A stretch of DNA of 64,000 nucleotides, taken from contig MU008236.1 in NCBI GenBank assembly GCA_010909165.1, positions 6,081 to 70,080 of the forward strand. The letters run 5' to 3'. The notes below the pieces were generated by a model. That model did no database searches, was not told the origin of the DNA, and saw nothing but the letters and a program-made list of their open reading frames with translations. This document shows positions 19,701-42,876 of the stretch, in pieces. Source of the stretch: Anthoceros angustus. Its lineage: Eukaryota > Plantae > Anthocerotophyta. A program made the position numbers and the translations under genes. How positions within the stretch are numbered: the stretch's first letter is position 1; every line of letters begins with the position of its first letter.

Positions 19701-20337
19701 GCGATTCTTGAGGATTACTTCTTTTCATTTCAATTCGAGTGGATTTTATTTGTTACATTCCCATTCGATCCTTCTTGGTTGACATTTTGTTGGAAGGCAC
19801 CGATTTCAAGCATCCTTTTATCACGGGAGGAGGATTTGACGATCTGATGTTCCTTGTTGATTTGAGAGGGAGCGGCCATACTAGTGCTTGCTTTCATGGG
19901 TGATGCACCGATGAGAGTGAGACAAGTCCACACGCCGAACTCGTGACATTCCCAGGATCACCGTGGCGAGTGCAAGCAAGGAGGAGGTGGGCAACGAGGA
20001 GAACAGCGGTGGCGAGGAGAACATTCGTGACAACATTCAACCTCCAACACTGCATGACCACACAGTCCTATAGCTAATCAATACCTTTGTCACACGGCGG
20101 AGGCCAGGCCGAGAATAGCGGCAAGGACATCCGTGAACCCAGAGCACCTTTTTTTCCAGGGGCCCGAGTACCGACGGACAAATCCACGACAACCATACTC
20201 GGGGCAGAACTTAGCTGATTACTCAGGGGATTCAGACACAATGGAGGGAGGAGGACCATATCAGCCGAGTGAAATTCAAACATGTTTCAGCATACAATCA
20301 TCTATATATGTTTGAGTAGTTGGCTGGGTATCTAGCA
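16746..20337. repeat. Tandem duplication, 2 x ~1.8 kb (~16746-18597, ~18598-20337), of an LTR/leader-like region
   Basis: GACACTTCTCCTT at 16750 and 18601. Both units end with ...CATACAATCATCTATATATGTTTGAGTAGTTGG and contain short ATACTCGGGAC(A/G)GTCCC repeats. Confidence 0.92.
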
Positions 20338-21559
20338 GATGAGGCTTTGGACCTGTATGAGGTGCACCAGATGGATCTCATGGCAATGGTGGCCACGCCT
20401 AATCCTCTTTTCCAGGGTGCTTTACAATTAGCCTACAACGCTAAACTGGCCACGGCAATCAATACTCACCTCGCGGGCATTGCTCTTTGGGCTCATGACC
20501 AGCAGCCACAACCACCTCGGTTTTAGCGACTATAGAGAGGTTGGTGGCTATAGTGGGGGTGGATGAGCACATCCTGACAGCTAAACACACCAATCCAGTG
20601 GAGGTTGTCATGTTGTTGCTGTATGGGAAACAGAGCACCTAAGACTCTATGTGGATCTTGTTGGAGCATCACAGGCATAAGCCGATCTTGAAGTGCTTGA
20701 TGATGTCATGTACATGGCCCATGGATGGCCTGACATGACATGTATGCATGTGTATGTATGCATATATGCGTATGGAGATGAAGGATGACATGATGTGTGG
20801 ACATGTGGCGGTGATGTGTCATGGCGCATGCAATCTATATGCATGGTTATGCATGTAAGGCGGTGCTATGGCGCATATATAGATAGATTTATTAGAAAAT
20901 ACATAAAATCATAAATCAAGGAAAAGGAATAGGCTGTTAAACACATAAAATATTATTATTTGAAGGCCAAGGAAAGTAGGATTATAAAGTGCCCACCATC
21001 GATACGGTGGACACTTCATCGAGAACTCCGGGGTTTTGCCTATATATGTAGGCACCACCATGGATTCTTGGATTGTTGATGTTTGTCTTGTTCTAATAGA
21101 CAGCCATACTTGTCCTCGTGTCTTTGTCTCCTAGAGGTTCTTGTGGTTCGTTGCATTACGGTTGGGAGAATTTTCCATCTTGATTTCACCACATCAACAA
21201 TCCTCTTGTTGGGGACTAAGATACTGATCTTGGAGGAGGCGCGCTGGAGATTGGAGGAAGAGGCGGAAGTCGCCCACCATCCAACCTGGAGGCAGTGCGA
21301 TCCGAGAAGGTTGAGTGTTGCGAGAACTAGAGATAGGCTGATGTTTTTCGATGGGAATTTCGCCATTGATTACACGGCTTAGGTGTGGTAGTCTCACGAT
21401 TCGAGTTAGCGTATGCGGAGAAGAGACGCATACATGAGCCGTTTGTGGATAGGCGGTGGATGTACTTTTACGGCTAGCTGGTTGGGCTAACGGTGGAAAC
21501 AATTTGCCCTTTGACAACATCCGTGCGCGTGGTGGGGCATAGGAGAAGTAACCATTGAT

Positions 21560-22620
21560 GGTGTTCACGAGATCGGGGTGGGTGACGAAAGGACACTGCG
21601 CCTTCATCGGAGAAGTGCACGCGTCTACTACGCCATTCAAGAGGACACGAACAATACGAGACAACGCCGATCACGGAGCAGTTTGGCGATTGGAGTCGCA
21701 AGAATGGAGCTTGAGTTCACACCAAGTAAGACGATGTCTTCACAGAAAACATGGAAGCATGTCTCTTGCGATTTCGAGGAGAAGTTTCGTTGGGCAATGG
21801 CGGAAAACAAGATGAAATACAAGGGAGTTCACTCGGAGGATGGCGTTCATGAAGATGTCATCCTACCTTGCGGTGAGGCTCTAATGTATTACGAGATGAG
21901 AAGGCGGGATCCCGAAGGTGGCAGAGAAGAGAAGCGGTGCATGAGGGCCAAGAGGGCTGGTTCGAGCACCCCCCTCTTCGAGGACAAGCTCGAGCATCCG
22001 TGGACTTGATGTTCGCCAAGTTAACCACCATGTTTCCCCTGACTGGAAAAGATCCGAGGTCGAGGTTTTCTTTCGGGCCTAATGAGACATTGCGTGCATC
22101 TTACCTCAGTTGAAGGTTACGGTGGAAGACACGGATGTAGAGGCGATGAGGAGGCTGAGATCTTCATGGCGGCTGCGAGACAAAGAAGGAAGGTGATGGA
22201 CTGCATGGAGCGATGGGAGAGATATCGGTTGATAGACGCCTCAAATTGCCGAGAAGGTGCTCAAAGGAGATGCGATGGCCAGGCTTACTTGGAGGATCAC
22301 GGAGTCGTGAAGGGCGCAGCGGAGAGAGGACACGGAATTCGTGTTTGTTCCAAGGTAGATCGGGAGCAGCACGATCCTCGGGACATGGCAAGCGGCCACA
22401 TGTGCGAAGGAGAGGCCCTAACAATGCAGTCAAGCGGTGTGAAGTGTGGCGGATCTTGGCGCCAAGGCGTTGAATGCGACTACAAGCGGTGGTCGAAGGG
22501 CAAGAACTGTAAGTCTTGTGGCGGATGGGGCACATGGAGGCAGCGTGTTGGGAAGCTCATCCCGAAGCCCAAGCTTGCATCGGGAGAAGGAGAAGGGCAA
22601 GGGCCCAAGTCGTAAGGCTC
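21560..22620 (+). mobile_element. gag of a Ty3/Gypsy-type element (capsid-like segment and CCHC zinc knuckle), frameshifted
   Basis: TWKHVSCDFEEKFRW (~21749) fits the gag 'TW-x-x-L-x3-F-x3-F' pattern. CKSCGGW(G)HMEAACWEAHPE at 22508-22563 is CX2CX4HX4C once one missing G in a homopolymer is restored. Confidence 0.75.
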
Positions 22621-23079
22621 TCCTCGGGCAAGTGGAGGAGCTCAAGAAGGAGATGGCCAACATGGCCCGGCAGAGCAGCAGGATTTTGTTCTCGACTGAT
22701 GAAGATGAGGCGTTTGGCATGATGGCGGTGCGCAAAAGAAAGAAAGGCATTGTTGACTTTGGTGAAGGCGTCACTGAGTGCGGAACGGAATCGACCAAGA
22801 TGCCGGAGAGTTTCCGGTCGAGGAAAACTCCACGAAGGTGTCAAGATCGGTCGAGACATTGAGGCGTTCTGGACAAGGCCATGGAGGTGCGATGAAGTCT
22901 TGTGGATCCGGGAGTGAAGGGCAACAACTTCAAAAACATCATGCGAGAATGGTGGAGAAAGGAGCTTGAATCCAGGATCTCTTCCTAGTATGGCCGGTTT
23001 GTGGCGAGCATCGATGCGAGGGCGAGGTGAAGGAGGTGTTGCCATGATTGATAACACGGATGACCTTTGATGGCTATGC

Positions 23080-23400
23080 TCCGATGAACGTGCTTGAACC
23101 GGAGCGGATCCGATCTGGGGAACACGGTGCGGGAGGCACTAAAGTTGTCGGACACAAGCTCGTTGCGGCGTGAACATCACCACCTCTGCAGTACCAAGGG
23201 CAGTCGGGAATGACGAGGAGGCCCGTGAAGATTGAATTGAAGCTCGAAGGATGCATCGTTGAAGTGAGATGTTTGGTCACCGGTGCAAAGACATATGATG
23301 TCTTCTGGTCGGACGGAACTCACCCGCCATGGGGTTGATCCCTTGCACCAAGCTTTCTGAGACCATTACGGTGGAGAGGAGATTTCACGCATGTTGCAAT
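23080..23400 (+). mobile_element. Retropepsin-type aspartic protease (frameshifted)
   Basis: GTGCTTGA-ACCGGAGCGGATCCG (23090-23112) reads VL(D)TGADP with a 1-nt deletion. Downstream VKIELKLEGCIVEVRCLVTGAKTYDV (YDV at 23294) fits the C-terminal YDVLLG motif region. Confidence 0.7.
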
Positions 23401-23699
23401 TCCTCTAAGGATGAATAGGAGTGGTGGCAAGAGCAGTGACGAGGATGACGCCATGATTGCCACGGTGCTCGAGTGAGCATCGACATGAGATGTGGGAGGA
23501 AAGCAGAGTTATCCTCTCTAGATGCCAAGCCAAGAGAGCGGAAGGTGTGCTTAAGGTTGTGCTCGATATTTGGATCAAGCGAGGGTTCGAGAACCGGTGA
23601 GGATCGACCTGGAATCTCACGGACACATGTCCCGAGAGGTCGATCCGGTATGAGGCCCGCCAAGTCGGAGATCGGCGACGATGCTCTGAACGATGGAAG

Positions 23700-24500
23700 G
23701 TGGTCAAGGCATCCATTTGTTGGAGCTCGCCGAAATCGCTGGCACAGGCGGTGTTGCGTGTGGCGATGGCAATATACTGCGTGGAAAAGGATGAGAAGAT
23801 TCCGCTAGGGTCGAATCTCGGTTCCTGGCGGTATCCAACACTCGAGCGAGAAGGAAGCGATTCGAGGCTGCGAGCTGCCTGACGTGAACTGGTTGGGAAG
23901 CGGGGTTGTCAAGCCGGTGGATATCGATCGCGGGATGGGAATGCAAGACATTTTCGGCGGTGGCAAAGGTGAAGGCGTTTTGTTGGCGGAGCTCGCGCGA
24001 ATCACGCGAGAAGTCCGCGAATCCACGATGTTGGTACATTCTGAGAATGTGTGCGACCATGGACAAAGCGTCCGGTAGGGCCCTATGAAGAGATTCGGGC
24101 GTGGTTCGGCAATGAGTTGATCATGGGCCGCGGTGCGTGTGGCTCATATGCACACAGAGCGATTCGGACAAATGTGGTGGAGGTGCTCGACGACAGAATT
24201 TGACAACTCAAGCGGAAGGTCGTGGATGATATCCTAGAGTTGGGAAGGTGCTCACAGTGAAGAGGATGGACAAGTTGCCATTTTACCACCGTGGTAGGGG
24301 AAGCCGAAGGGCATGGCCAACTCGTGAGCACACCGCAATCTTATGCCTTGACGGGAGGAGATGGTGTGATTCGGATTTGAAGGGAATGAGCTTGGAGCTC
24401 AATGTTGAGGAACGCGAGCAAGCGATGGGCTTTGCCAAGAAGGACACTCGGACCATGGGCATCAGATCGGATGCTGGATGGCATTTGACATTTGATGCGA
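23700..24500 (+). pseudogene. C5 cytosine DNA methyltransferase domain inside retrotransposon pol (frameshifted)
   Basis: Motifs in DNMT order across frames: GIHLLEL (23708, motif I region), AVLR...YCVEKDE (23775, motif II), RYPTL...AIRGCELPDV, PVDI-IAGWEC (Cys 23942-23944, motif IV), ELARI...YI(L)ENV (ENV 24043-24051, motif VI), GSYAHR..(W)TN (24141, motif VIII), RAWPT, ELNVEEREQAMGF..DT (24395, motif IX) and RML(G)xAFD (~24470, motif X). Confidence 0.82.
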
Positions 24501-24588
24501 GGTGGTGTAAGCCACTTGGCGTTCCAACTTGCAGCGAAGCGAAAGCCTTCCTCCAACTACAGGATAAAGAGGTTCCTAAGGAAGATGA

Positions 24589-25990
24589 GTGCGAGAGATT
24601 CAGATGGCGGTGGATCTTGAATCGTCTACCAAGAGTGTGACGAAAGAGGTTCATGTATGGCACATTGCAGAAGATGTGAGCCCGGAAGATAAGCAGAAAA
24701 TCATCAACATGCTTGAGAAAAACAAGGGTGCTTTTGCATTCAGTTGGAAGGAGCTGGGTAGGTATGAGAAGATCAAGTTCAAAGTAGTGACGACTCATGA
24801 AGAGCCCGTCTTCAGAAGGAGGCATCGCCTCAGTTCAGCAGAATGGGAGATTGTTGACAAACGCTGTCAAGACTTGTTCGAAGCAGGGTTGATAAGAAAA
24901 TCAAGCTCTCAATATGCTGCTGCGACTGTCCTACCGCTCAAAAAGGATGAGAACGGTGAATGGAAGGACAGGAGGATGTGTGGCGACTACCGACCTCTAA
25001 ACGAGGTGACTCCTATGGAGCGGTACCCCATGCCTACTCCAGACGAGATTTTCGATGCCATAGGTAAGGCAAAGTTCTTTACCAGCTTGGACTTCCGCTC
25101 AGGCTTCAACCAAATTGTGATTGAAGAGCAGGACAAGTGCAAGACCCTTGGGGAAGGACCAGCTTTGGGAGTGGGAGACAATGCCGTTTGGGCTGAAAAT
25201 GCTATATATTTCCAAAGAATTGCGGATCTGGGCTGCAGGTGCCATTTGTGCGTTGTTACATAGATGATATCCGGTCTTTGTGAGACAATCGAAGAACATA
25301 TGGAGCATCTAGAGATATTGCTCAGTCAAGCTCGGGTTTGAAAGCTCATCCTAAGAAATGCAAGTTTGCTTTCCAGGATCAGTATGGGGCATGAGATAGT
25401 ACCGAGGCATCATGCCTCTCGGTGGCTAAGGTGCGTGATGCAAATGCCTAGACCAAAGGATGTAGCTCTTAGAGCCTTCACAGGTTTGGTGAACTATTAC
25501 AGGAGGTTTATGAAGGACCTCGGTTCACATGTAAACCTGTATGAGCTGAAGAAAGACATTGCATGGAAATGGGACCAAGACCAGGAGTTGGCTTGGCAAG
25601 ATCTTCGGGACCAGTTGGCAGAGAAGCCTATGCTGGCCAGGCCGAATTTTGATCACCCTTTCACTCTGTACACATCGGAGCACTGAGGCGGTGTTGTCAC
25701 AACATGGTGCGATGGTGTTGAGCGAGTGATAGCTTATGCAAGCCGATCTAACAACTCCAAGTGAACTACCTCATATGAGGGAGAGTGTCTTGTCGCATGG
25801 GCGCTCGCATTTCGTGGTCTATCTGTATGGAAGGCGTTAATCGGTCACAGATCACCAGCCACTTCATTGGCTGATGACCAACATGAAGTTGAGTGGTAAG
25901 CTAGCGGTGGCTCTCGAGTACGATATGGAGATCGTGCACAGGGCAGGCAAGGTGCATCACAATGCAGATGGGCTAAGCAGAAACCCGCTG
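24589..25990 (+). mobile_element. Ty3/Gypsy reverse transcriptase and RNase H (frameshifted)
   Basis: ORF 24589..25263 has RRMCGDYRPLN, YPMPTPDEIFDAIGKAKFFTSLDFRSGFNQI and YIDD at 25257-25268. It is followed by LRAFTGLVNYYRRF, PMLARPNFDHPFTLYT, AYASRS, TDHQPL and YDMEIVHRAGKVHHNADGLSRNP. Confidence 0.95.
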
Positions 25991-26444
25991 GAGAGTGACA
26001 AGGATGTCACAGAGCTCGATGTGATGAGGGGCACGATGGTGCACCCAGCTTCATGGCACTCATGGCCGTGATAGATGATCATGAAGAAGGACATGTGCCG
26101 ACAGAGTCCGCTGTGATGTTTGAGACATCCTCAAGCCTGATTCAAGAAGGCAAGGTTCGAATGATCAAGGTGCTTGGCTAAACTCAGAAGGCGTGTGGCC
26201 AGATACTCCTAGGACTGGTAGTTCTCACCCTGCACAGCAGCCATGGAGGAGGTCTCGCACAAGCGAGGTGGAGATACTGGAATCTGTGCCCTCTAGGGTG
26301 TGCTATGACTGCCGTCAATTCCAGCAGAGTTTGCAGGACAGGATGGGACCCCAATTTGTGGATGACGAAGATGCGGGTAAGTGGAGCATCTTCTACTCCC
26401 GCAAGTATGACCCGGAACGAGGTATTCCACCTGCAAGTTATGAC

Positions 26445-29400
26445 GAGCTTCACATCTTCCTACTGTATGTTGAGGAGCATCATGACAGCTGTAGGGTGGA
26501 GCATTATCCCACAGAACATCGGGATTTATTTGAGCTCCAGGGGTCCTGGCGTTGCCTCGGACTGGACAAGCTATCTGAGAGGGTGCATGGAGGAATTTCA
26601 GCATCACTTCCAAATGCATCAATGGTTTGATGGGATGAGGTTGCAGTGAGTTCGTTGGTGGGAGACACATAGCCGCTTGATTTTTCTCAAGGAGTGGTTT
26701 CGAGTTTTCCACCATCCGCGACGGGGGCATCATGTGGTGGCCTCGGCAGTTTTACATTCTGACCAACAAGCTGAGGACCCCTCATGTTGATCAACGTGCT
26801 TGGACTCGAGAGGAGAAGGACGCGTTCAACTGTCTCAAGAGACTCGCCAGCCCGCACATCTACACTTCCTGTAAGTTACCGTTTTTCAATTACCCAACAC
26901 AGGAAGCTTACAATCGGGACATGGATGCTGGACAGGATGGCATACATCCTTTTTTCAGCCAGTTCGATGCACAGAAGAGCTTTGTGGAAGAACAGGTTGA
27001 CAATCTATCTGGATTCAAGCTGCCCAGCGAGATTACTATTAAGCAGGAGGCACAAGAAGACCCATCAGATGATGAGGATCTCGAAGATGACGCCATTCCT
27101 CCTCCTCGGCGTAACCACCGCTGTTGGACAAGCTACGCTCGCGGTGGGGACGCTGAGTAGTTGTTTGTTTTCTAGGCCAAGATGGTCTAAATAACTTTGT
27201 GGGAAACCGGTGGCTAGGCCTCCAAGTTTCAATTCATGGTCCGGTCCGCCTCTCTTAGGCAAACCCGTCTCTTTAGTTTTGCCCTTGGCCATAGGCCAAG
27301 GACAAATTAAGAGCTAGGATTATTGCTCGGCCAGGCCAAGGACGCCACAGCAGTGATGCTTAGAAAGGACTTAGCTTGTGGCGAGGCTAGGCAGGCATCA
27401 TATGCGGCTGGCTGACAAGGTGTTCATGAGGATTACGGAAAAAGCCTTTGAAGACTCTCGAAAAATTGCAAAGCTTCGTCCTTTGCATGAAGAAAGGAGA
27501 GCAGTCACGAGATGACTTTTGAAGGTTACTGTTGCGAAGGCAGGCATCTTGACGGATCAAGCCGTGGAGAAATTTGGTTGGAGGGGACTCCTTGTTCCAT
27601 TTTCAGCTCACTTCAGGTGGATAAGTATGGTGACAGCTACACCTTGGAACAAGTTCATGAAGAGGTAGAGCGCATAGAGATTGCCCCATGACCAAGGGCA
27701 AGGAGGTGGCTACCAAGGATGGGACGTCCACCAAGGGAGGTGGCACGGGGAAGGATAAAAACTCTAAGGCGGAGGTGGGGAAATGGAAAGTCCATGACTC
27801 ACACGTGCTATGGAGGCCAAATGTCCTCGGGATCTTGCAGGACTTTAGGCCACAGGCGTGAGAGAGCATCCAGGAGTGGGTGTTATGGGAGGCTGTCTTA
27901 CACCAACTTTGGAATTAATTGAAGAATGTTTTGCTAACTGCACCAAGCGAGGAGGAAGAAACAAGAGGTCCCAACGGCAAATAAAGGGTAGCACAAGGGC
28001 AAGACACATGAGGCGAGTCATGGCCACACAGTCATGAAAATCCGTGACTTGGAAATGGAGTTGGGGAAATTCCGGAGGTTGGAGCGAAAGGAGGAAGAGG
28101 CTGGAAGAGCGGACACATTTTGTCAGAAGATTGGAGATGGAGCGAGAATGCGCAGGAGCATGCACAACTCCCTAGGAGGATAGGGGAGTTAGAAAAGGAG
28201 AGCGAGAAGAGGAAGACCGTCCGGAAAGTGCGGCATGTTGGTGGTAAGGGAGCAGAGATTTTGGGCTAATTATGCCCTATAGGAGAAGTTGATCCACCAA
28301 CTGCAGACGAAAAGAGTGGAGAATGTGGCTCTTCACGTCAGGGTGGGGAGTTAACCTTGGGCGAGATGCTTACAAAAGTAAGTGTGAGCTTCACATCTTC
28401 CTACGTATGTTGAGGAGCATCATGGCGGTGTAGGGTGGAGCATTATCCTGAGGAACATCGGGATTTATTTGAGCTCAGTGGGGTCTGGCGTTTGCCACGG
28501 ACTGGACAAGCTATCTGAGAGGGTGCATGGAGGAATTTCAGCATCACTTCCAAATGCATCAATGGTTTGATGGGATGAGGTTGCCAGTGAGTTCGTTGTT
28601 GGGGAGACACATACCCTCGTCTTGATTTTTCTCAAGGAGTGGTTTCGAGTTTTCCACCATCTGCGGGGCCAGGCATCATGTGGTAGGGTGGCCTCGGCGG
28701 TTTACATTCGACCAACAAGTGAGGACCCCTCATGTTGATCAACGTGCTTGGACTCGAGAGGAGAAGGCGTTCAAGCTATCTCGAGAGACTACTTGACCCA
28801 TCTACACTTCACAGCAAATTCTGGTTTTCAATTACCCAACACGAGAAGCTTACAATCGGGACATGGATCTTTGGGCGAGGATGGCATACATCCTTTTTCA
28901 GCCGATTCGATGCGGAGCTTTGTGGAAGAAACGGGTTGACAATCTATCTGGATTCAAAAGGCGCGAGATTACTATTAAGCGGGAGGCCTGAAGACCCATC
29001 GGATGATGAGGATCTCGAAGATGGCGCCATTCCTCCTCCTCGCGGAGACCACCGTCGGTGTTGGACAAGCTACGTTCTCGTGGTGGGGGCGTTGGTGAGT
29101 AGTTGTTTGTTTTTCTAGGCCAAGATGGTCTAAACAACTTTGTGGGAAACCAGGTGGCTAGGCCTCCAAGTTTCCAGGGGCTTCATGTCCTGGGTGCTCG
29201 CTCTTAGGCAAACCCGGTCTCTTTTTGTGCCCTTGGCCATAGGCCAGGACAAATTAAGCTAGGATTATTGCTCTGGGCCAAGGCCAGGGCGCCTGAGCGG
29301 TGATGCTTAGAAAGGACTTAGCTTTGTGGCGAGGCTAGGCATGCACTATGCTCACAGGCCGCGACAAGGTGTTCATGAGGATTCTGGAAAAAGCCTTTCC

Positions 29401-30396
29401 GCTGAAGACTCTCGAAAAAATTGCAAAGCTTGCGTCCTTTGCAAGAAAGGAGAGCAGTCACGGATGACTTTTGAAGATTCTGAGTTCTTGAGAAAGGCGA
29501 GGCATCTTGACGGATCAAGCCGTGGAGAAATTTCCAGCGTTGGAGGGGACTCCTTGTTCCATTTTCAGCTCATCACTTCTACGGTGGATAAGTATGGTGG
29601 CACTACACCTTGAGAACAAGTTCATGAAGGTAGGCGCATAGATTGCCCCATGACCAAGGGCAAGGAGGTGGCTACCAAGGATGGGACGTCCACCAAGGGA
29701 GGTGGCACAGGGAAGGATAAAAACTCTAAGGCAGGAGGTGCAGGCTTCGGGAAATGGAAAGTCGACATGCCACAGCTCACGTGCTATGGAGGCCAAATGT
29801 CCTCCAGGGATCTTGCAGACTTTAGGCCCTGGGCAGCAGAGGAGAACATCCAGCTGGAGTGGGTGTTATGGGAGGCACTGGTCTTACACCAACCTGGAAT
29901 TAATTGAAGAATGTTTTGCTAACCTGCACCAAACAGAGGAAGAAACAAGACAGGTCCCAACAGCAAATAAGGGTAGCACAAGGGCAAGTAGAAGCACATG
30001 AGCAGGTCATGGCCACACAAGCTGTGAAAATCCGTGACTTGGAAATGGAGTTGGGGGAAATTCGCCGGAGGTTGGAACGAAAGGAGGAAGAGCTGGAAGA
30101 ACGGACACATTTTGTCCGAAGATTGGAGATGGAGCGAGAAGTACAGCAGCAGGAGCATGCACAACTCCCTAGGAGGATAGGGGAGTTAGAAAAGGAGAGA
30201 GCAGAAGAGGAAGACCGTCATGAGGCGGTTGTGCAGCACATGTTGGTGGTAAGGGAGCAGAGATTTTGGGCTAATTATGCCCTATAGGAGAAGTTGATCC
30301 ACCAACTGCAGACGAAAAGAGTGGAGAATGTGGCTCTTCACGTCAGGGTAGGGGAGTTAACCTTGGAGCGAGATGCTTACAAAAGTAAGTGTGAGC
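26445..30396. repeat. Tandem duplication, 2 x ~1.95 kb (26445-28385, 28386-30396)
   Basis: GAGCTTCACATCTTCCTAC at 26445 and 28386; the 4-bp microhomology GAGC is also at 30393. Confidence 0.93.
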
Positions 30397-30659
30397 AGGG
30401 AGTGTGGCTTGAGGATTATAAAGAATTGGAGATGGCACAACAACGATTTGCAGCCCATCTTCACAACAAGGTACTCAAGGCAACTAACGAATTATTGCGG
30501 GTTGCTGAGAAAAGAATGTTGGGACCTCATGATGATGATAGGGAGGCCCTTATGCAGGTCCAACCAAGAGCCTTAGACTTGGAGAATGCCCCAAGCGACA
30601 TGGATGAAGGAACTTCGCAACGGGGGAAACAAGTGGAGCGGCTCCACTTTCCTGTCTAA
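29340..30659 (+). pseudogene. gag-like segment followed by the accessory coiled-coil ORF of a non-autonomous LTR-element family
   Basis: FMRILEKAFPLKTLEKIAKLASFARK (~29371) and GGDSLFHFQLITSTVD, then MPQLTCYGGQMSSRDLADFRPW...YTNLELIEECF and ...ENVALHVRVGELTLERDAYKSKCEQGVW...DDDREAL. Homologous to the 10.7-16.6 kb minus-strand ORFs and to 43067..43729. Confidence 0.65.
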
Positions 30660-31257
30660 AAAACCAGGCCCTAACCCTTCTCTTCTTTTTTAATAAAATC
30701 TCCACTTTCCTCTCTAAAAAACCAGGCCCTAATAGGACATATCACTATCTTTGATAATTGTAATGGTGACCACGTCGGGGATTGCATTTTCCTCTAATTA
30801 ATTATCAGTAGATGTCTGTCGGAATTGGGGAAAACCCCTCCGCCCTCTGGGGTTAACTCGCGTGTGTCTGTAGAAGGTCGAGCGCGCCGGGAGACGGTTT
30901 GCGGTACTTAGGGCAAAGTTTTTTACAATCGGCCGTATCAACAATTGGTACAATTGGTGTCCGACCAGTATCTTCACCGTGAATACCCTACGAGGCCGTT
31001 ACAAATCCGGAGCTCTGCGGCCGCCGTTACAAATCTGGAGCTCTGCGGCCGCCGACTAGAATCTATCTATAGGCACGGCGCTGGCAGAGTGCACTCCATA
31101 CTGGCAGGCTTTGGAGGGGCTACCTACGGGCTTTGTAACGTCGGGGATGGCGCGTTGAGCTTGTAACTGCGCTTCCCAAGGTGCAACCTTGGGGGAGAAT
31201 ACCCTGTTGCGGTTTCATTTGTTGAGCACAAACACCTTCGCGTTTGAGGCGTACGCA

Positions 31258-31875
31258 ATGCCTAGGAAGCGCAAAACTCCGAAAGACGGTGAAGAGCAGG
31301 CACAGGGTCTTCAGGTCACTTCACAGCCCTCGGCAAATGTGCCACCGAGGGAGGCTGTCGAAATACTTGAGATGGGGCGGATGAATAGGGGGCGATTCGA
31401 TCTGGGGCCGGTGGCGGTCCAGTACAGGGAAGGGAGCACCTCCTTCTGTAGGTCCCGCTGGAGTGCCTAGCCTGGGATATTACCCGCCGCAGAACTCTCA
31501 AGAAGCAGTTTCCATTTCTGGGACAGCCTGCACTGCTGATCGAGACTTGCTGAAGGCGCCGAAGGCTTTGCAGCCTGTTGCTAAAGCTTCCACTGGACCT
31601 CCTTTTGAATCGATGCCTGACTCTGTCTCTCGCGTGGAACCCTCAACATCGCCAGCAAGCAGCTTTGTGAATGCTGGGGCTACAATTGCTAGGCGCATGA
31701 ATGACTTGCGGCTTCAGGAGCGTCAAGAAGCATCCGCTCCATCTTCGCCCACTCATGTGCAGGCCCCACCTGTGTCCAGCAAGTCACTGAGGTTTCCTTT
31801 GCGGCCAGGAAAGGGCCGCTCAGGTATCAGTGTTGTCAAGGCGAATCATTTCTTTGCGGAGTTGCCTGATAAAGA
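31258..31875 (+). pseudogene. AGO1: Partial duplicate of AGO1 exon 1 (copy 1, truncated at duplication junction)
   Basis: ATG at 31258 ([10 protein letters not shown]...) through [12 protein letters not shown], then a jump back to 30511 sequence across the AAAGA microhomology. Confidence 0.85.
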
Positions 31876-32611
31876 ATGTTGGGACCTCATGATGATGATA
31901 GGGAGGCCCTTATGCAGGTCCAACCAAGAGCCTTAGACTTGGAGAATGCCCCAAGCGACATGGATGAAGGAACTTCGCAACGGGGGAAACAAGTGGAGCG
32001 GCTCCACTTTCCTGTCTAAAAAACCAGGCCCTAACCCTTCTCTTCTTTTTTAATAAAATCTCCACTTTCCTCTCTAAAAAACCAGGCCCTAATAGGACAT
32101 ATCACTATCTTTGATAATTGTAATGGTGACCACGTCGGGGATTGCATTTTCCTCTAATTAATTATCAGTAGATGTCTGTCGGAATTGGGAAAACCCTCCG
32201 CCCTCTGGGGTTAACTCGCGTGTGTCTGTAGAAGGTCGAGCGCGCCGGGAGACAGTTTGCGGTACTTAGGGCAAAGTTTTTACAATCGGCCGTATCAACA
32301 ATTGGTACAATTGGTGTCCGACCAATATCTTCACCGTGAATACCCTACGAGGCCGTTACAAATCCGGAGCTCTGCGGCCGCCGTTACAAATCTGGAGCTC
32401 TGCGGCCGCCGACTAGAATCTATCTATAGGCACGGCGCTGGCAGAGTGCACTCCATACTGGCAGGCTTTGGAGGGCTACCTACGGGCTTTGTAACGTCAG
32501 GGATGGCGCGTTGAGCTTGTAACTGCGCTTCCCAAGGTGCAACCTTGGGGAGAATACCTGTTGCGGTTTCATTTGTTGAGCACAAACACCTTCGCGTTTG
32601 AGGCGTACGCA

Positions 32612-34120
32612 ATGCCTAGGAAGCGCAAAACTCCGAAAGACGGTGAAGAGCAGGCACAGGGTCTTCAGGTCACTTCACAGCCCTCGGCAAATGTGCCACC
32701 GAGGGAGGCTGTCGAAATACTTGAGATGGGGCGGATGAATAGGGGGGCGATTCGATCTGGGGCCGGTGGCGGTCCAGTACAGGGAAGGGGCGCACCTCCT
32801 TCTGTAGGTCCCGCTGGAGTGCCTAGCCTGGGATATTACCCGCCGCAGAACTCTCAAGAAGCAGTTTCCATTTCTGGGACAGCCTGCACTGCTGATCGAG
32901 ACTTGCTGAAGGCGCCGAAGGCTTTGCAGCCTGTTGCTAAAGCTTCCACTGGACCTCCTTTTGAATCGATGCCTGACTCTGTCTCTCGCGTGAACCCTCA
33001 ACATCGCCAGCAAGCAGCTTTGTGAATGCTGGGGCTACAGTGCTAGGCGCATGAATGACTTGCGGCTTCAGGAGCGTCAGAAGCATCCGCTCCATCTTCG
33101 CCCACTCATGTGCAGGCCCCACCTGTGTCCAGCAAGTCACTGAGGTTTCCTTTGCGGCCAGGAAAGGGCCGCTCAGGTATCAAGTGTGTTGTCAAGGCGA
33201 ATCATTTCTTTGCGGAGTTGCCTGATAAAGATCTGCACCAGTATGATGTAAGGACGCTTTTTCATGACTCTACTTTGTGTCATCGAATCTATCGGACCTT
33301 CGGAACCCATTTTCTCTGACTGTTCACCTGTCCAGGTTTCGATTACGCCGGAGGTGACATCCCGTGGGGTGAATAGGGCTGTAATGAAGGTTCTAGTCAG
33401 CACCCACAAGGATTCGGCTCTGGGTCAGCGTTTACCTGTATATGACGGACGGAAAAGCCTTTACACAGCTGGCCCTCTACCATTCCAATCAAGGAATTTC
33501 ACGTGAACCTCCTAGATGAAGAGGATGGTACTAATACTCAAAGGTTTGTATCTATTGGTTGAAGCTCTCTTGTTTCCTTTGTGCTAGAAGGTTGTCATAG
33601 CTTCTATCCTGTCTTTGCAGAAGGGAGAGGTCGTTTAGGGTTGTGCTGAAGCTCGCAGCCAGGGCAGATCTGCACCATTTAGGGCAATTCCTGCAAGGTA
33701 GACAAGCAGATGCACCACAGGAAGCTTTGCAGGTGCTCGACATAGTTTTGCGAGAACTTCCCACTCATCGGTATGCCTTTTTCCTGTGATGACGTTAATT
33801 CGTTCATCTGCAGCAGTGTTAGGCCCAGTCTAAGCTGCCTCACCCATTTTGTCTGACTGTAGATACTCCCCAGTTGGCCGATCATTCTATTCACCACATT
33901 TAGGACATCGACAACCTTTGGGAGATGGTCTGGAAAGTTGGCGTGGTTTTTATCAAAGCATTCGGCCTACTCAGATGGGTTTGTCTCTCAATATTGGTGA
34001 GGAATATCTTCAGCCTTGCTTTTGCGAGTATTTTATATTGTGCCTTCGTCTTGTGAGGCATGCTATCCTTCCCTTCGGTTGTTAGCTGCAGAGTGAAGGC
34101 AACCAGGTGTTAAAATCAAC
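32612..34120 (+). pseudogene. AGO1: Partial duplicate of AGO1 exons 1-4 (copy 2, truncated at duplication junction)
   Basis: ATG at 32612; exons read to MGLSLNI, then a jump back to 32294 sequence across the ATCAAC microhomology (34115-34120). Confidence 0.85.
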
Positions 34121-34432
34121 AATTGGTACAATTGGTGTCCGACCAATATCTTCACCGTGAATACCCTACGAGGCCGTTACAAATCCGGAGCTCTGCGGCC
34201 GCCGTTACAAATCTGGAGCTCTGCGGCCGCCGACTAGAATCTATCTATAGGCACGGCGCTGGCAGAGTGCACTCCATACTGGCAGGCTTTGGAGGGCTAC
34301 CTACGGGCTTTGTAACGTCAGGGGATGGCGCGTTGAGCTTGTAACTGCGCTTCCCAAGGTGCAACCTTGGGGAGAATACTGTTGCGGTTTCATTTGTTGA
34401 GCACAAACACCTTCGCGTTTGAGGCGTACGCA

Positions 34433-37400
34433 ATGCCTAGGAAGCGCAAAACTCCGAAAGACGGTGAAGAGCAGGCACAGGGTCTTCAGGTCACTTCACA
34501 GCCCTCGGCAAATGTGCCACCGAGGGAGGCTGTCGAAATACTTGAGATGGGGCGGATGAATAGGGGGCGATTCGATCTGGGGCCGGTGGCGGTCCAGTAC
34601 AGGGAAGGGCGCACCTCCTTCTAGGTCCCGCTGGAGTGCCTAGCCTGGGATATTACCCGCCGCAGAACTCTCAAGAAGCAGTTTCCATTTCTGGGACAGC
34701 CTGCACTGCTGATCGAGACTTGCTGAAGGCGCCGAAGGCTTTGCAGCCTGTTGCTAAAGCTTCCACTGGACCTCCTTTTGAATCGATGCCTGACTCTGTC
34801 TCTCGCGGAACCCTCAACATCGCCAGCAAGCAGCTTTGTGAATGCTGGGGCTACAGTGCTAGGCGCATGAATGACTTGCGGCTTCAGGAGCGTCAGAAGC
34901 ATCCGCTCCATCTTCGCCCACTCATGTGCAGGCCCCACCTGTGTCCAGCAAGTCACTGAGGTTTCCTTTGCGGCCAGGAAAGGGCCGCTCAGGTATCAAG
35001 TGTGTTGTCAAGGCGAATCATTTCTTTGCGGAGTTGCCTGATAAAGATCTGCACCAGTATGATGTAAGGACGCTTTTTCATGACTCTACTTTGTGTCATC
35101 GAATCTATCGGACCTTCGGAACCCATTTTCTCTGACTGTTCACCTGTCCAGGTTTCGATTACGCCGGAGGTGACATCCCGTGGGGTGAATAGGGCTGTAA
35201 TGAAGGTTCTAGTCAGCACCCACAAGGATTCGGCTCTGGGTCAGCGTTTACCTGTATATGACGGACGGAAAAGCCTTTACACAGCTGGCCCTCTACCATT
35301 CCAATCGAAGGAATTTCACGTGAACCTCCTAGATGAAGAGGATGGTACTAATACTCAAAGGTTTGTATCTATTGGTTGAAGCTCTCTTGTTTCCTTTGTG
35401 CTAGAAGGTTGTCATAGCTTCTATCCTGTCTTTTGCAGAAGGGAGAGGTCGTTTAGGGTTGTGCTGAAGCTCGCAGCCAGGGCAGATCTGCACCATTTAG
35501 GGCAATTCCTGCAAGGTAGACAAGCAGATGCACCACAGGAAGCTTTGCAGGTGCTCGACATAGTTTTGCGAGAACTTCCCACTCATCGGTATGCCTTTTT
35601 CCTGTGATGACGTTAATTCGTTCATCTGCAGCAGTGTTAGGCCCAGTCTAAGCTGCCTCACCCATTTTGTCTGACTGTAGATACTCCCCAGTTGGCCGAT
35701 CATTCTATTCACCACATTTAGGACATCGACAACCTTTGGGAGATGGTCTGGAAAGTTGGCGTGGTTTTATCAAAGCATTCGCCTACTCAGATGGGTTTGT
35801 CTCTCAATATTGGTGAGGAATATCTTCAGCCTTGCTTTTGCGAGTATTTTATATTGTGCCTTCGTCTTGTGAGGCATGCTATCCTTCCCTTCGGTTGTTA
35901 GCTGCAGAGTGAAGGCAACCAGGTGTTAAAATCAACTTTTTGGTGGTGCAGACATGTCGTCTACTGCCTTCATTGAGCCACTGCCTATTACTGATTTCGT
36001 GGCTCAGATTCTGAATCGGGATTTGTCAAGACCTTTGACGGATGCAGACCGGATTAAGGTATCATAGCTCTGCGTGCCAGGTGTTTTAAAGTTTGACCCC
36101 GTCCTTGAAATTCCTCTTCTATATTATTTTAGGAGGACATCATAGTATGCAGTTCTGCCATAGCGCCTACCAGCTTGGGCTGAAGCCTTGGATGGCAGCT
36201 TGTCCTTATCACCCTCATACTGATCTAGCCCATAGCGTCCTGCAGTTGTGCAACTTCATCTGGTCTGCTGGTTGTTACTTTAGTGGTGTCCTCCTGTGTT
36301 TGAGTAGCCTTTTCCATTCTGAGCTGCGGCTGCCCATAGTAGCCTTTTTTATTTCTCGGGGACTTTTAACTCCATGGCTTGGTGGCACCTTCTTTCTTTA
36401 GCCCTGAAGCTTATCTGTTGTGTTACAAGTAGATCTCTCATGCATAGCTAGCATTCTATTGAGTAGCACTTGTTGAATCTGAGCTCATTGTACTATCCAT
36501 GGGGGTGTTGTACTATTATCAAGTCAGGATTTGGGCTCGAACTAAATTTTGTGGGACTACTTGCTTCCTCCAGGTCAAGAAAGCACTTGAGGTATTAAAG
36601 TGGAGGTGACTCATCGGGGGCCAATGCGCCGCAAATACCGTATCTCTGGCATAACAGCTCAGGCAACACATGATTTAAGGTGTGCTTGTATAAGAATGGA
36701 TATGCCCTTTGGAATAGTGAGGACGTGTCTTTGAGTACCCCTGCCTTGTTTGATCTCGCGAAGTTCGTGGTGGCAGGACTGACAGCTTATTTTGTCCAGC
36801 TTTCCAGTAGATGAAGAGGATGGTACTAATACTCAAAGGTTTGTATCTATTGGTTGAAGCTCTCTTGTTTCCTTTGTGCTAGAAGGTTGTCATAGCTTCT
36901 ATCCTGTCTTTTGCAGAAGGGAGAGGTCGTTTAGGGTTGTGCTGAAGCTCGCAGCCAGGGCAGATCTGCACCATTTAGGGCAATTCCTGCAAGGTAGACA
37001 AGCAGATGCACCACAGGAAGCTTTGCAGGTGCTCGACATAGTTTTGCGAGAACTTCCCACTCATCGGTATGCCTTTTCCTGTGATGACGTTAATTCGTTC
37101 ATCTGCAGCAGTGTTAGGCCAGTCTAAGCTGCCTCACCCATTTTGTCTGACTGTAGATACTCCCCAGTTGGCCGATCATTCTATTCACCACATTTAGGAC
37201 ATCGACAACCTTTGGGAGATGGTCTGGAAAGTTGGCGTGGTTTTTATCAAAGCATTCGGCCTACTCAGATGGGTTTGTCTCTCAATATTGGTGAGGAATA
37301 TCTTCAGCCTTGCTTTTGCGAGTATTTTATATTGTGCCTTCGTCTTGTGAGGCATGCTATCCTTCCCTTCGGTTGTTAGCTGCAGAGTGAAGGCAACCAG

Positions 37401-40400
37401 GTGTTAAAATCAACTTTTTGGTGGTGCAGACATGTCGTCTACTGCCTTCATTGAGCCACTGCCTATTACTGATTTCGTGGCTCAGATTCTGAATCGGGAT
37501 TTGTCAAGACCTTTGACGGATGCAGACCGGATTAAGGTATCATAGCTCTGCGTGCCAGGTGTTTTAAAGTTTGACCCCGTCCTTGAAATTCCTCTTCTAT
37601 ATTATTTTAGGGAGGACATCATAGTCGCAGTTCTGCCATAGCGCCTACCAGCTTGGGCTGAAGCCTTGGATGGCAGCTTGTCCTTATCACCCTCATACTG
37701 ATCTAGCCCATAGCGTCCTGCAGTTGTGCAACTTCATCTGGTCTGCTGGTTGTTACTTTCGTGGTGTCCTCCTGTGTTTGAGTAGCCTTTTCCATTCTGA
37801 GCTGCGGCTGCCCATAGTAGCCTTTTATTTTATCGGGGACTTTTAACTCCATGGCTTGGTGGCACCCCTTCTTTCTTTAGCCCTGAAGCTTATCTGTTGT
37901 GTTACAAGTAGATCTCTCATGCGCATAGCTAGCATTCTATTGAGTAGCACTTGTTGAATCTGAGCTCATTGTACTATCCCATGGGGGTGTTGTACTATTA
38001 TCAAGTCAGGATTTGGGCTCGAACTTCTGAAATTTTGTGGGACTACTTGCTTCCTCCAGGTCAAGAAAGCACTTCGAGGTATTAAAGTGGAGGTGACTCA
38101 TCGGGGGCCAATGCGCCGCAAATACCGTATCTCTGGCATAACAGCTCAGGCAACACATGATTTAAGGTGTGCTTGTATAAGAATGGATATGCCCTTTGGA
38201 ATAGTGAGGACGTGTCTTTTGAGTACCCCTGCCTTGTTTGATCTCGCGAAGTTCGTGGTGGCAGGACTGACAGCTTGTTTTGTCCAGCTTTCCAGTAGAT
38301 GAAAGAGGAACTATGAAATCTGTCACCGAGTATTTTAAGGAAACTTACAGCTATATCATTCGACGGCCATCTTTGCCATGTTTGCAAGTGGGAAATCAAC
38401 AGCGTGTGAACTACCTGCCTATGGAGGTACTGCCTTTATCTGTCACATGCTGGAGGTTGGATCGTCAATCAAGACTTGCAGGCTGTGTCCCTGTCCTGAG
38501 CCCCATCATCCTTTGTGTGTTTTCTTGGTGTGTTTGAGTAGGCTGAAATTCTGTTTCTTGTAAAATATTCAGGTTTGTAAGATTGTAGAAGGGCAGCGAT
38601 TTTCCAAACGGTTGAATGAGAGACAAATCACTGCACTATTGAAAGTTACATGTCAGCGGCCAAAGGACAGGGAGATGGACATTGTGCAGGCCTGTCTTAT
38701 CCTCCTAATCATTATATATTGGCTGCTTGCCCTACTGCTTTAGCTTAGGTCTGTGGCCAATGGCTTGTGACATGCACAATTACTTATCTGTATGCAGACA
38801 GTCCATCACAATGCTTATGACAGAGATCCCTATGCCTGTGAATTTGGCATCAAAATAAGTGACAAGCTTGCTTCAGTGGAAGCTCGTATTCTACCCCCTC
38901 CACGGGTCAGTTTCTACTTGTGCCTGGGAATTACACTTGAAAGTGTGAAGTAATGTACCTGATTGTTGTTATTGTACGAGTACAGCTCAAATATCATGAT
39001 ACCGGGCGAGAGAAGGATTGTTTGCCTCAAGTTGGTCAATGGAACATGATGAACAAGGTAACAACAGACTGATTAACAGAGGACTTATCGGGTTTTTTCT
39101 ACTCACTGTTCTTCTGGGAAGTGCAGAAGATGGTGAATGGAGGTGTTGTAAACTTTTGGGCTTGCATCAACTTCTCCCGGAGTGTGCAAGAAAATGTTGC
39201 CCGCGGATTTTGCATCGAGCTTGCACAAATGTGTCTGACTTCTGGCATGGTAAGAACTAGAAGACTGCTCATGCATTTCACTATTTTCACCTGGCTTTGG
39301 GAATACTTGTACGCCTGCATGTTAAATAACTATTGTCATATGTCCGGTGTTTTGATTTGTGGCGTAAGAACATGTGTACAGGCATTCCAGAGTGAACCAG
39401 TTTTGCCAGTTCACATGGCCCGTCCGGATCAAGTAGACGAAGCTTAAAAGCTCTGTATCGGGATGCCCAAATGAAACTAAAAGGCAAAGACCTGGAGCTC
39501 CTTGTGGTCATTCTCCTGACAACAATGGTGCTCTCTGTATTGATTCAGTTGTTGAAGCTCGTTGTATGCCACTGAATTTGAAGGAGGTGGTCTAAGAACC
39601 TTTGAGTACAATGAGATTATCCTGTGAGGGTTTTCTTGGTGTGTTTTGAGTAGGCTGAAATTCTGTTTCTTGTAAAATATTCAGGTTTGTAAGATTGTAG
39701 AAGGGCAGCGATTTTCCAAACGGTTGAATGAGAGACAAATCACTGCACTATTGAAAGTTACATGTCAGCGGCCAAAGGACAGGGAGATGGACATTGTGCA
39801 GGCCTGTCTTATCCTCCTAATCATTATATATTGGCTGCTTGCCCTACTGCTTTAGCTTAGGTCTGTGTGGCCAATGGCTTGTGACATGCACAATTACTTA
39901 TCTGTATGCAGACAGTCCATCACAATGCTTATGACAGAGATCCCTATGCCTGTGAATTTGGCATCAAAATAAGTGACAAGCTTGCTTCAGTGGAAGCTCG
40001 TATTCTACCCCCTCCACGGGTCAGTTTCTACTTGTGCCTGGGAATTACACTTGAAAGTGTGAAGTAATGTACCTGATTGTTGTTATTGTACGAGTACAGC
40101 TCAAATATCATGATACCGGGCGAGAGAAGGATTGTTTGCCTCAAGTTGGTCAATGGAACATGATGAACAAGGTAACAACAGACTGATTAACAGAGGACTT
40201 ATCGGGTTTTTTCTACTCACTGTTCTTCTGGGAAGTGCAGAAGATGGTGAATGGAGGTGTTGTAAACTTTTGGGCTTGCATCAACTTCTCCCGGAGTGTG
40301 CAAGAAAATGTTGCCCGCGGATTTTGCATCGAGCTTGCACAAATGTGTCTGACTTCTGGCATGGTAAGAACTAGAAGACTGCTCATGCATTTCACTATTT

Positions 40401-42876
40401 TCACCTGGCTTTGGGAATACTTGTACGCCTGCATGTTAAATAACTATTGTCATATGTCCGGTGTTTTGATTTGTGGCGTAAGAACATGTGTACAGGCATT
40501 CCAGAGTGAACCAGTTTTGCCAGTTCACATGGCCCGTCCGGATCAAGTAGACCGAAGCTTAAAAGCTCTGTATCGGGATGCCCAAATGAAACTAAAAGGC
40601 AAAGACCTGGAGCTCCTTGTGGTCATTCTCCCTGACAACAATGGTGCTCTCTACGGTATTGATTCAGTTGTTGAAGCTCGTTGTATGCCACTGAATTTGA
40701 AGGAGGTGGTCTAAGAACCTTTGAGTACAATGAGATTATCCTGTGAGGGTTTAAAGTGACTTGTGGATTGTTGACATCTCTCACTGCAGGTGATTTAAAG
40801 AGAATCTGTGAAACAGATCTTGGTGTTATCTCACAGTGTTGCTTGACAAAGCACGTTTTCAAGATGAGCAAGCAGTACCTCGCAAATGTGGCACTAAAAA
40901 TTAATGTGAAGGTAGATATCTGGCTTGCATGATAAATGCTGAATGCCGAAGGTGTCAAGTTGAGCTTGGTGCTTTGCTTGTCTTATTTTGAACGGGTCAG
41001 ATTGATGACCCACTTTTTAACTTCATTGGGTTGTAACTTTTGTTGTAGGTTGGTGGTAGAAACACAGTGTTGGTAGATGCTATTTCAAGGAGGATTCCCT
41101 TAGTGAGCGATATTCCCACTATCATTTTTGGGGCAGATGTTACCCATCCTCATCCTGGAGAAGACTCAAGCCCATCTATTGCAGCTGTCAGTTTGGACCA
41201 TGACATTTCTCTATGTATTGAGGCCCTGGTCGTGCACTTTAAATTCATCCTCAAGCTCTATTGGTCCCTGTGTTTGAAAATCTGCAGGTAGTTGCATCAC
41301 AGGATTGGCCAGAGGTCACAAAGTATGCAGGCTTAGTGTGTGCTCAAGCACACAGGCAAGAGTTGATCCAGGACCTGTTCAAATCTTGGGTTGATCCAAA
41401 GCGGGGCCCATGCTCTGGTGGAATGATCAAGTACTTTCTGAACCAGACGGGGTCCATCTGGAGGTCCTTGATGGACCTGCAAAAGCTTCTCTTGCTATTG
41501 ATGGTTTTCTTCCAGAGCTTGAAAGCACGATACAATCTCCTTCGTTTCCCTTATATTGTGTTGATCTACAGGGAGCTACTTGTTGCCTTCCACCGAGCGA
41601 CAGGACAAAAGCCGCTCAGGATAATATTTTACAGGTGTTTGGTTTGATTCTTTTGTAATTGTGGTAATTGGGTCAATACTGGCTTTTAAGACCTCAATAA
41701 TCTTGTCCTGCAGAGATGGTGTTAGTGAGGGCCAGTTCTACCAGGTTCTTCTTTATGAACTGGATGCCATTCGCAAGGTGAGGATAGTCCTGAATGTTCT
41801 GCTTGGGGCCTCCCCTGATTATTTAATGTCTGACAAATCATGTGTTTTGTCGCATGCAGGCTTGTGCTTCCCTGGAGCAAGGTTATCAACCGCCTGTTAC
41901 TTTTGTTGTGGTCCAAAAGAGGCACCATACCCGTCTGTTTGCCAGTAACCACAACGATCGCAATACAACTGATAAAAGTGGGAACATCCTTCCAGGTTTG
42001 GCTCTCTGGTATCTGATATGCTGGCAGATAGATGTGAGTTTCAGAGCCCGAGGTCTGTGTTGGGAACGCTTGTTAATCTCTTCCATTTGATTTTGATGGG
42101 AGTTGCTTTCTGTTTTACTCAACTGCGCAGGTACAGTCGTGGACTCAAAGATCTGTCATCCTACAGAATTTGACTTTTACCTTTGCAGTCATGCAGGCAT
42201 ACAGGTCGCTGAAATGCAATTTGTCCTTTTGCAAGCTACTTAACCTCGGTGTTCTGAGGTGTGTGATGTTTACACATACGCCTGTTGTTTTCTATTGTCC
42301 GCAGGGAACAAGCAGACCAGCCCACTACCATGTGCTGTGGGATGAAAATAACTTTACTGCAGATAGCATCCAGTCCCTCACTAACAATCTCTGTTACACG
42401 TAAGTTCATCGTAGGGTTACAAGCAAGCACATGGTCATCTTCTGGAAGTGTTTTGACTGTTCAGGTTTAGCAGCGTTCACAGTTTTCAGCAGTGTGTGGG
42501 CTGTATTACAGGTATGCGCGGTGCACTCGATCTGTTTCTATTGGTAGGCGGCTGCAACCCTTGTTGGAACGAATGTGCTCTGCTTCATAGTGCTTGGCTT
42601 GCGTGGTTTTTGATGCTTGCAAGTTGATAATCCTCTATTTGTCCTGCAGTTCCTCCTGCTTACTATGCACACCTGGCAGCTTTCCGGGCACGATTTTACA
42701 TGGAGCCTGAAGCATCAGACAGTGGCTCCGTAACCAGTGGTGTGGGTCCTACTAGTAGCAGGAATCTGGCTACAGGGAGCTCAAGCTCTCGCACCACCCG
42801 GGTGGTTGCTGCTGGTCTAGTACGCCCATTGCCTGCCCTGAAGGATAATGTGAAGAAGGTTATGTTTTATTGCTAG
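34433..42876 (+). CDS. AGO1: Argonaute 1-clade protein (N, PAZ, MID, PIWI), 22 coding exons, with internal duplicated blocks
   Basis: Hand-built exon path: 34433-35063, 35152-35360, 36917-37066, 37157-37290, 37430-37536, 38060-38166, 38288-38426, 38573-38689, 38798-38905, 38986-39057, 39127-39249, 40496-40655, 40790-40911, 41049-41186, 41288-41430, 41572-41634, 41714-41777, 41860-41995, 42131-42204, 42305-42399, 42512-42543, 42650-42876. Splice phases close from exon 2 to the stop. Hallmarks: [116 protein letters not shown] and the C-terminus [17 protein letters not shown]. Exon 1 has indels in this copy that are complemented by the other two copies. Confidence 0.96.

Follow-up and report, generated by a model that had tools for sequence, protein, structure and literature searches.

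A 3'-truncated Ty3/Gypsy retrotransposon copy with a probable DNMT3-type methyltransferase domain in a DNA stretch from Anthoceros angustus

Retrotransposons that encode a cytosine DNA methyltransferase (DNMT) within their own polyprotein have been described in Klebsormidium nitens and in Symbiodinium (de Mendoza et al. 2018, PMC5890265). The Klebsormidium element, KnitGypsy-Dnmt3, has Gypsy domains and, within its Pol open reading frame (ORF), an intronless domain related to DNMT3 whose motifs are not permuted. It is reported to have split terminal repeats of the form A...B-A-B, and is called the Gypsy-DNMT3 of streptophytes in a preprint (bioRxiv 10.64898/2026.05.21.726589). SymbioDIRS-Dnmt3 likewise carries a DNMT3 domain in Pol and split repeats; it belongs to the DIRS class, with a tyrosine recombinase, and is the sole retroelement DNMT for which the available text of PMC5890265 gives de novo CG methylation. 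Here we describe a related locus in 64,000 nucleotides of Anthoceros angustus contig MU008236.1 (positions 6,081 to 70,080 of the forward strand, assembly GCA_010909165.1; hereafter the window). We consider it quite probable that this locus is a 3'-truncated Ty3/Gypsy copy whose Pol holds a DNMT3-type methyltransferase between protease and reverse transcriptase (RT), most likely of a land-plant branch of the Gypsy-DNMT3 kind typified by KnitGypsy-Dnmt3. The enzyme would be expected to methylate newly made complementary DNA (cDNA) of the element itself.

The locus differs from KnitGypsy-Dnmt3 in its land-plant-like host and in lacking integrase and repeats, the split repeats being found in its relatives. 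It differs from SymbioDIRS-Dnmt3 in that its relatives have a protease and a DDE integrase; a DIRS identity was ruled out by the protease in the window and by RT relatives with an rve integrase. A further group, the EpiLTRs of Cymbomonas and Euglena, also comprises long terminal repeat elements with a cytosine DNMT, but theirs is sister to DNMT4, is accompanied by DAM and a chromodomain, and is described in the preprint text available as distinct from Gypsy-DNMT3 (bioRxiv 10.64898/2026.05.21.726589). The original prediction for this locus, made from its sequence, held that such systems are little described in embryophytes, and the literature searched, with most subscription papers outside reach, agreed: no DNMT-bearing retrotransposon was found described there for any land plant. 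An opinion paper states in its available text that transposon-borne DNA methylases are absent from land plants and are thought to stop at algae (PMC6338049), and the term PF00145 is absent from the accessible part of a hornwort supplement (PMC10952607). In Dataset S4 of that supplement, as far as available, 32 of the 39 genes annotated with DNA methylation and N-methyltransferase GO terms in Anthoceros agrestis fall into a silent, transposon-overlapping cluster (P2), which is possibly another transposon-borne methyltransferase family.

A methyltransferase domain between protease and reverse transcriptase

The forward strand from 21.7 to 26.0 kb is broken into a series of short ORFs, across which the original prediction had placed a Gypsy element that encodes a C5 methyltransferase of its own, located between the protease and RT. 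Frameshift-aware alignment gave scores far above those of shuffled sequences. A DNMT profile built from 74 domains, taken from the 150 best matches, aligned over positions 8-329 of its 335 with a score of 213.6, compared with at most 52.7 in 40 shuffles, and no region elsewhere in the window exceeded 55. The longest RT piece retrieved seven proteins among 351 candidates, three of which carry a methyltransferase upstream of RT. One of these is a Closterium protein; another, P0005, consists of a gag knuckle, a protease, a PF00145 domain (1e-8) and RT. The methyltransferase domain of P0005 scored 110 against the window; 60 shuffles reached no more than 52 and the 86 other window tiles no more than 59, while two partial relatives scored 60 (shuffles up to 44) and 54 (shuffles up to 64, not significant). 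The prediction had also held that the ORF track is blind to this domain. Indeed, none of the four DNMT-region pieces among 12 single ORF pieces scanned with Pfam matched PF00145 (the scan gave weak RT and RNase H matches only), and the frame-crossing profile did. A homologue search with the C-terminal DNMT piece found none among 187 candidates, and a PDB sequence search with two DNMT pieces returned chance-level matches only.

Motif mapping bore out the predicted order and positions of protease, DNMT, the YIDD-bearing RT and RNase H, so that the domain order in the window reads gag-protease-DNMT-RT-RNase H (Table 1). Within the DNMT domain the motifs follow the order I-IV-VI-VIII-IX-X and are not permuted. 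The motif IV cysteine, ENV with the motif VI glutamate, GSYAHR, EEREQAMGF and pieces of motif X were recovered as predicted; the intact motif I was not. In the protease, TGADP lies at 23098, and a frame break precedes it at the place of the catalytic aspartate. RT was aligned over 223 of 234 profile positions and RNase H over 141 of 141, both without a shuffle control.

No integrase was found 3' of RNase H (profile score 44.6, with up to 52.1 in shuffles), which counts against full Gypsy membership of this copy; the same profile scored 64-114 on six window tiles holding Copia pieces. Because 51 of the 54 related loci with enough downstream DNA have an integrase there, we read its lack here as truncation. 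As assembled, the element is cut on its 3' side near 26.1 kb, where a different repeat block adjoins. The putative 5' repeat has no second copy in the window and matches the terminal repeats of relatives at shuffle level only. No terminal-repeat pair for the element lies within the window, hence the split A-coding-B-A-B pattern is not seen in this copy, which cannot move by itself. The prediction had mentioned neither the missing integrase nor the missing repeat pair.

Table 1. Positions of the element, its neighbours and tandem near-duplicates in the window
Feature	Position	Strand	Basis or remark
Putative 5' repeat and leader	20710..21560	+	contig depth of run X1 begins at bin 20734, zero in the preceding bin
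Gag-like region	21700..22560	+	weak similarity to relatives' gag; broken CX2CX4HX4C knuckle at 22508-22548
Knuckle pieces	CKSCG 22508; GHMEAAC 22528	+	
Aspartic protease	23090..23349	+	profile 70.5, at most 46.2 in 40 shuffles
Probable DNMT3-type C5 cytosine methyltransferase domain	23705..24517	+	profile alignment; 9 frame breaks, 1 stop
DNMT motifs	LLEL 23717; VEKDE 23781; AGWEC 23930; ENV 24043	+	AGWEC is motif IV
DNMT motifs, C-terminal part	GSYAHR 24141; RTN 24165; EEREQAMGF 24407; motif X pieces 24468-24492	+	
Linker and Ty3/Gypsy reverse transcriptase	24589..25398	+	YIDD at 25257; 7 frame breaks, 0 stops
RNase H	25555..25981	+	SYEGECL 25771, HHNADGLSR 25955; 7 frame breaks, 1 stop
Recognisable pol ends; integrase and 3' repeats missing	26014..26445	+	integrase profile
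Repeat block, tandem near-duplicate (87%, mostly gap differences), probable assembly artefact	26445..30396	+	holds related-lineage gag pieces and a coiled-coil ORF
Host AGO1 gene, exon blocks tandemly repeated by assembly	31258..42876	+	22 exons
Tandem near-duplicates, examples	756-5171; 9166-13887; 16746-20336; 26445-30396; 30495-40752		

Relatives of the element and affinity to DNMT3

Alignment with the RT found 378 related metagenome stretches, of which the best 80 were analysed. The set is redundant, drawn from a small number of data sets and dominated by one decayed family, so that counts among these loci are not counts of independent events. A DNMT lies upstream of RT in 63 of the 65 loci with at least 900 nt of upstream DNA, and the domain order of the relatives is protease-DNMT-RT-RNase H-integrase. 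A single ORF spans the DNMT within Pol in the relatives P0005 and P0010, and named Closterium proteins also have a DNMT at the same place. Terminal repeats, examined in 23 loci, were complete as A...B-A-B in four, present as one pair in seven (one with A inverted) and absent from the rest; the complete arrangement is the one stated for KnitGypsy-Dnmt3 in the available text of PMC5890265. In 94 relatives, motif IV reads xEC in 52 and PC in 21, with the pattern unmatched in 18, and the cysteine, the motif VI glutamate and the AHR motif are kept across the family. Stops interrupt every one of the 28 DNMT domains that lie in a single frame in the related plant loci. The ratio of nonsynonymous to synonymous change (dN/dS) in these loci is 0.41 for DNMT, 0.36 for RT and 0.38 for integrase (0.27-0.38 across non-DNMT domains), values biased by C-to-T decay, which makes up 72-79% of changes; the ratios that mark purifying selection on the DNMT in PMC5890265, as far as available, are below 0.2. 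An intron-containing plant OPR1 gene adjoins the element in one related locus, and the flanks of related loci gave a weak DUF247 match below the cut-off. A family relative matched DNMT clusters in the ESM Atlas, and a phage search gave distant C5 methyltransferases only, at 25-33% identity among the 10 matches listed.

Ranking PDB entries with a family profile of 15 proteins placed DNMT3A/B/C first (about 1e-18 to 1e-21), followed by M.HhaI (1e-9) and DRM (1e-8). A predicted model of the relative P0096 (mean pLDDT 89) matched DNMT3A best (E 3e-20, TM score 0.71). By sequence and predicted fold, the DNMT of the family is thus DNMT3-related, as tested on the relatives and not on the broken domain of the window, and the original likening to the retrotransposon-encoded DNMTs of algae and dinoflagellates is supported. 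The catalytic domain of DNMT3A/3B, together with the host DNMT3 of bryophytes, is the closest in solved sequence or fold, sharing an unpermuted motif order, unlike DRM. The window domain differs from DNMT3A/3B in its motif IV (AGWEC, theirs GGSPC), in being intronless and part of a polyprotein, and in lacking PWWP and ADD domains. In an RT tree of 142 sequences and 220 columns (FastTree, midpoint root), the window RT grouped at a support of 0.84 with a protein of Calypogeia fissa, 13 of the 14 loci included and four further proteins, apart from Closterium; the Calypogeia protein (P0002) begins past the DNMT position, so that a DNMT is not visible there.

A second Gypsy architecture, RT-RNase H-DNMT-integrase, was met among these proteins (P0019-P0142), with the same kind of DNMT placed between RNase H and integrase; it accounts for 56 of the 94 related DNMT domains in the tree. 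In the RT tree these proteins form their own clade (support 0.89), which also takes in two type-A sequences, and no description of this order was met in the literature searched, as far as its text was available. One metagenome locus (L015:3-3380) holds an unbroken frame from the end of the DNMT through RT, RNase H and integrase on a contig of GC content 0.50, on a branch other than that of the decayed plant loci.

Host lineage, frame breaks and other repeats

The AGO1 gene downstream of the element had been taken for a land-plant gene, and its sequence agrees. Twenty-two exons drawn from different tandem copies splice, at canonical sites, to an open frame of 896 codons, which is 79-85% identical to 17 AGO1 proteins over 782 columns. 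Approximately unbiased tests rejected AGO1 as the sister of either ferns or angiosperms (p about 0.002), and rejected none of the positions sister to liverworts (p 0.64), mosses (0.37) or euphyllophytes (0.46). The gene lies outside the Marchantiales and Sphagnum clades, each supported at 100%, on a branch as short (0.13) as land-plant tips. An algal AGO orthologue is expected on a much longer branch. The window has a GC content of 48.4% and a median AGO1 intron of 106 nt; the genome of Anthoceros angustus is reported at 49.6% GC in the available text of PMC7027989, a fit that is no more than a hint. On these grounds we read the host as probably a land plant of an early-branching lineage, with a hornwort as the best guess, another liverwort or moss, or a lycophyte, less likely, and an alga very unlikely. 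A GC-AG intron was observed in AGO1 at 39802-39911, and a search for a miR168-like site gave a single match in the window, with three mismatches and outside AGO1, which is chance level.

Ten tandem near-duplicate pairs of 0.9-2.4 kb occur window-wide, AGO1 exon blocks included, and differ mostly by gaps. Their identity is 98-99% at AGO1 and 85-94% in repeats, with gaps enriched at CWG. In the five pairs below 95% identity, 103 of 317 single-base gaps fall at CWG against a background of 11%, and 31 of 317 at the control GWC against 11%; an enrichment at CG (86 of 317) was dismissed as unspecific, as the GC control was enriched too. We infer that the CWG-biased gaps fit long-read errors at methylated CHG sites; the near-duplicates are probably assembly artefacts with methylation-linked read errors. 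In the window, the reading frames of DNMT, RT and RNase H are interrupted by 22 deletion-type breaks, one insertion-type break and two stops, whereas 37 decayed relatives carry 291 stops and 52 frame changes. Frame breaks occur even in some copies of AGO1 exons. Most of those in the element are likely long-read errors at methylated sites, and decay of the actual DNA may be far slighter than the assembly suggests. Of the 365 contigs placed on 20000-31000, 200 are at least 95% alike. Among the sequencing runs listed, one DNA run (X1) matched, with a small share, and no RNA run did. Its contigs insert letters at several sites of the element. They extend over gag, protease and RT and leave 23808-24674 uncovered, and no single contig joins the DNMT to RT; this gap proves nothing, and contig depth does not give copy number.

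Several gag pieces elsewhere in the window (20320-20700; about 27370-27500, with a duplicate at 29340-29470; and 43260-43570) are related to the gag of the plant Gypsy-DNMT3 loci, with best scores of 67-115, where 8 shuffles gave no more than 51; relatives, or derivatives that are non-autonomous, are thus common in the window. Coiled-coil ORFs occur in two related repeat elements, at 29904-30659 (+) and about 11000-15900 (-); these ORFs gave no reliable family, and nothing reliable in the ESM Atlas. Fragments of Copia-type gag, integrase, RT and RNase H, recognised by eye and with the integrase profile, occur at 38-646 (-), 46700-49000 (+), 52900 (+), 54500-56900 (-) and 61000-62300, and a 14-nt tandem array and a purine-rich simple repeat, the latter with the single N of the window, at 7441-7693 and 52574-52792.

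Predicted activity, competing explanations and meaning

The scheme that we favour follows the proposal made in PMC5890265, as far as its text is available. In complete members of the family, the protease would cut the polyprotein inside the particle and RT would make cDNA, whose cytosines, probably at CG, would be methylated before integration by a co-packaged DNMT using S-adenosylmethionine and the motif IV cysteine. Integrase would then insert an already methylated copy, and host MET1 would maintain the marks. Such pre-methylation would either hide the copy from surveillance or damp its own spread. The original prediction had credited charophyte retrotransposon DNMTs with de novo CG methylation. 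This did not hold: in the available text of PMC5890265, de novo CG methylation is shown only for the SymbioDIRS-Dnmt3 enzymes of dinoflagellates, and the Klebsormidium Gypsy enzyme was negative. Nor did its description of the locus as a transposon-borne epigenetic writer stand, since the assembled copy is without integrase and 3' repeats and has a shortened DNMT; judged from its sequence as assembled, it cannot be an active writer.

Several points limit, or weigh against, the reading as a self-methylating Gypsy-DNMT3 element of a land plant. The predicted gag with a CCHC knuckle was recovered as far as the knuckle pieces go, but gag similarity is weak: the best score was 67 (8 shuffles gave up to 49), and of 18 queries several did not rise above shuffles. 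The catalytic cysteine of motif IV is present but reads EC rather than PC, motif I (FxGxG) is not readable intact, and 16 of 43 strongly conserved DNMT columns are unmatched (27 matched). The domain spans 813 nt, about 16% less than the 963 nt of relatives, compared with losses of 5% in RT and 10% in RNase H, and this greater loss could be real decay. CpG observed/expected in the DNMT region is 1.09, that is, without depletion. The DNMT tree places the window away from the plant loci, at a position without support (0.53). Kinship with KnitGypsy-Dnmt3 was set by its text description, with no named Klebsormidium sequence among the proteins compared and its exact DNMT position and sequence outside the comparison. 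The AGO1 comparison set consists of 17 of the 120 matches listed (13 named, four labelled by source) and is without hornwort, lycophyte, gymnosperm, leafy-liverwort or algal AGO. Finally, KnitGypsy-Dnmt3 gave no methylation in yeast, a result that its authors call inconclusive (PMC5890265, available text).

This yeast result also bears on the possibility that the element is as described but its DNMT is no working methyltransferase, serving instead as a DNA-binding, base-flipping or decoy module (for example, against host DNMT3) or acting on another substrate. Because motif IV is of the EC type in most relatives and CpG is not depleted in the window DNMT, a non-catalytic role retains some weight, and we regard it as doubtful rather than negligible. 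Against it, the cysteine, the motif VI glutamate and AHR are retained both in the window and throughout the family, the predicted fold of a relative matches DNMT3A, and the dN/dS of the DNMT in plant loci, decay-biased as it is, resembles that of RT and integrase; human DNMT3B, moreover, was likewise negative in the same yeast assay according to the available text of PMC5890265. A reading of the lesions as real, with the copy an old fossil in which the DNMT decayed fastest and the family extinct in this host, seems to us unlikely to a similar degree. The missing integrase and 3' end, the larger loss of DNMT length and the stops in every single-frame DNMT domain of related plant loci speak for it, but deletion-type breaks far outnumber stops in the window, the same gap-dominated, CWG-biased differences separate the tandem near-duplicates, breaks reach AGO1 exon copies, and more than half of the placed contigs are closely alike.

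We hold it very unlikely that the host is a charophyte alga, or that the element comes from algal DNA through contamination or misjoining, either of which would mean no extension to land plants. The family is known in Klebsormidium (PMC5890265, available text) and present in Closterium, the AGO1 tree is without algal AGO and the assembly has artefacts; yet AGO1 sits on a short branch close in identity to land-plant genes, the RT groups with Calypogeia and plant-flanked loci rather than with Closterium, and one sequencing run has both the element and the DNA immediately upstream of AGO1. That the element, or its DNMT alone, has been co-opted as a regulator of the AGO1 gene nearby is scarcely credible. 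Proximity alone (about 3-5 kb) suggests it: the assembled gap is 5.2 kb, of which about 1.95 kb is a tandem near-duplicate resembling an assembly artefact. A different repeat block lies between, and the window is dense in transposon pieces on either side. Because none of the 80 related loci has an AGO match, we take the neighbourhood as chance. The original link of a writer to a silencing gene is undercut by the same count, by the partly artefactual gap and by the nature of AGO1, which the available text of PMC9033089 gives as the Argonaute of the microRNA pathway and not a DNA-methylation one.

Taken together, the truncated Gypsy copy with its DNMT3-type domain would represent a kind of element already known, and by its sequence would extend that kind to a further land-plant lineage. 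In a bolder version, which we put forward tentatively and consider rather improbable as a whole, Gypsy-DNMT3 elements reached land with the common ancestor of plants and persist in at least three land-plant lineages, including a leafy liverwort and the hornwort- or lycophyte-like host of the window. In that host the family would still be young, and its EC-type DNMT3 would be functional and pre-methylate the cDNA of the element. Such elements can inflate host DNMT3 gene counts in annotations. If the host were a lycophyte, the printed claim that vascular plants have no transposon-borne DNA methylases would be contradicted. A copy in a land plant that is distinct from mosses, Marchantiales, ferns and angiosperms suggests a family as old as land plants, and would bring the question of how these enzymes benefit the element into transformable plants with known methylation pathways.

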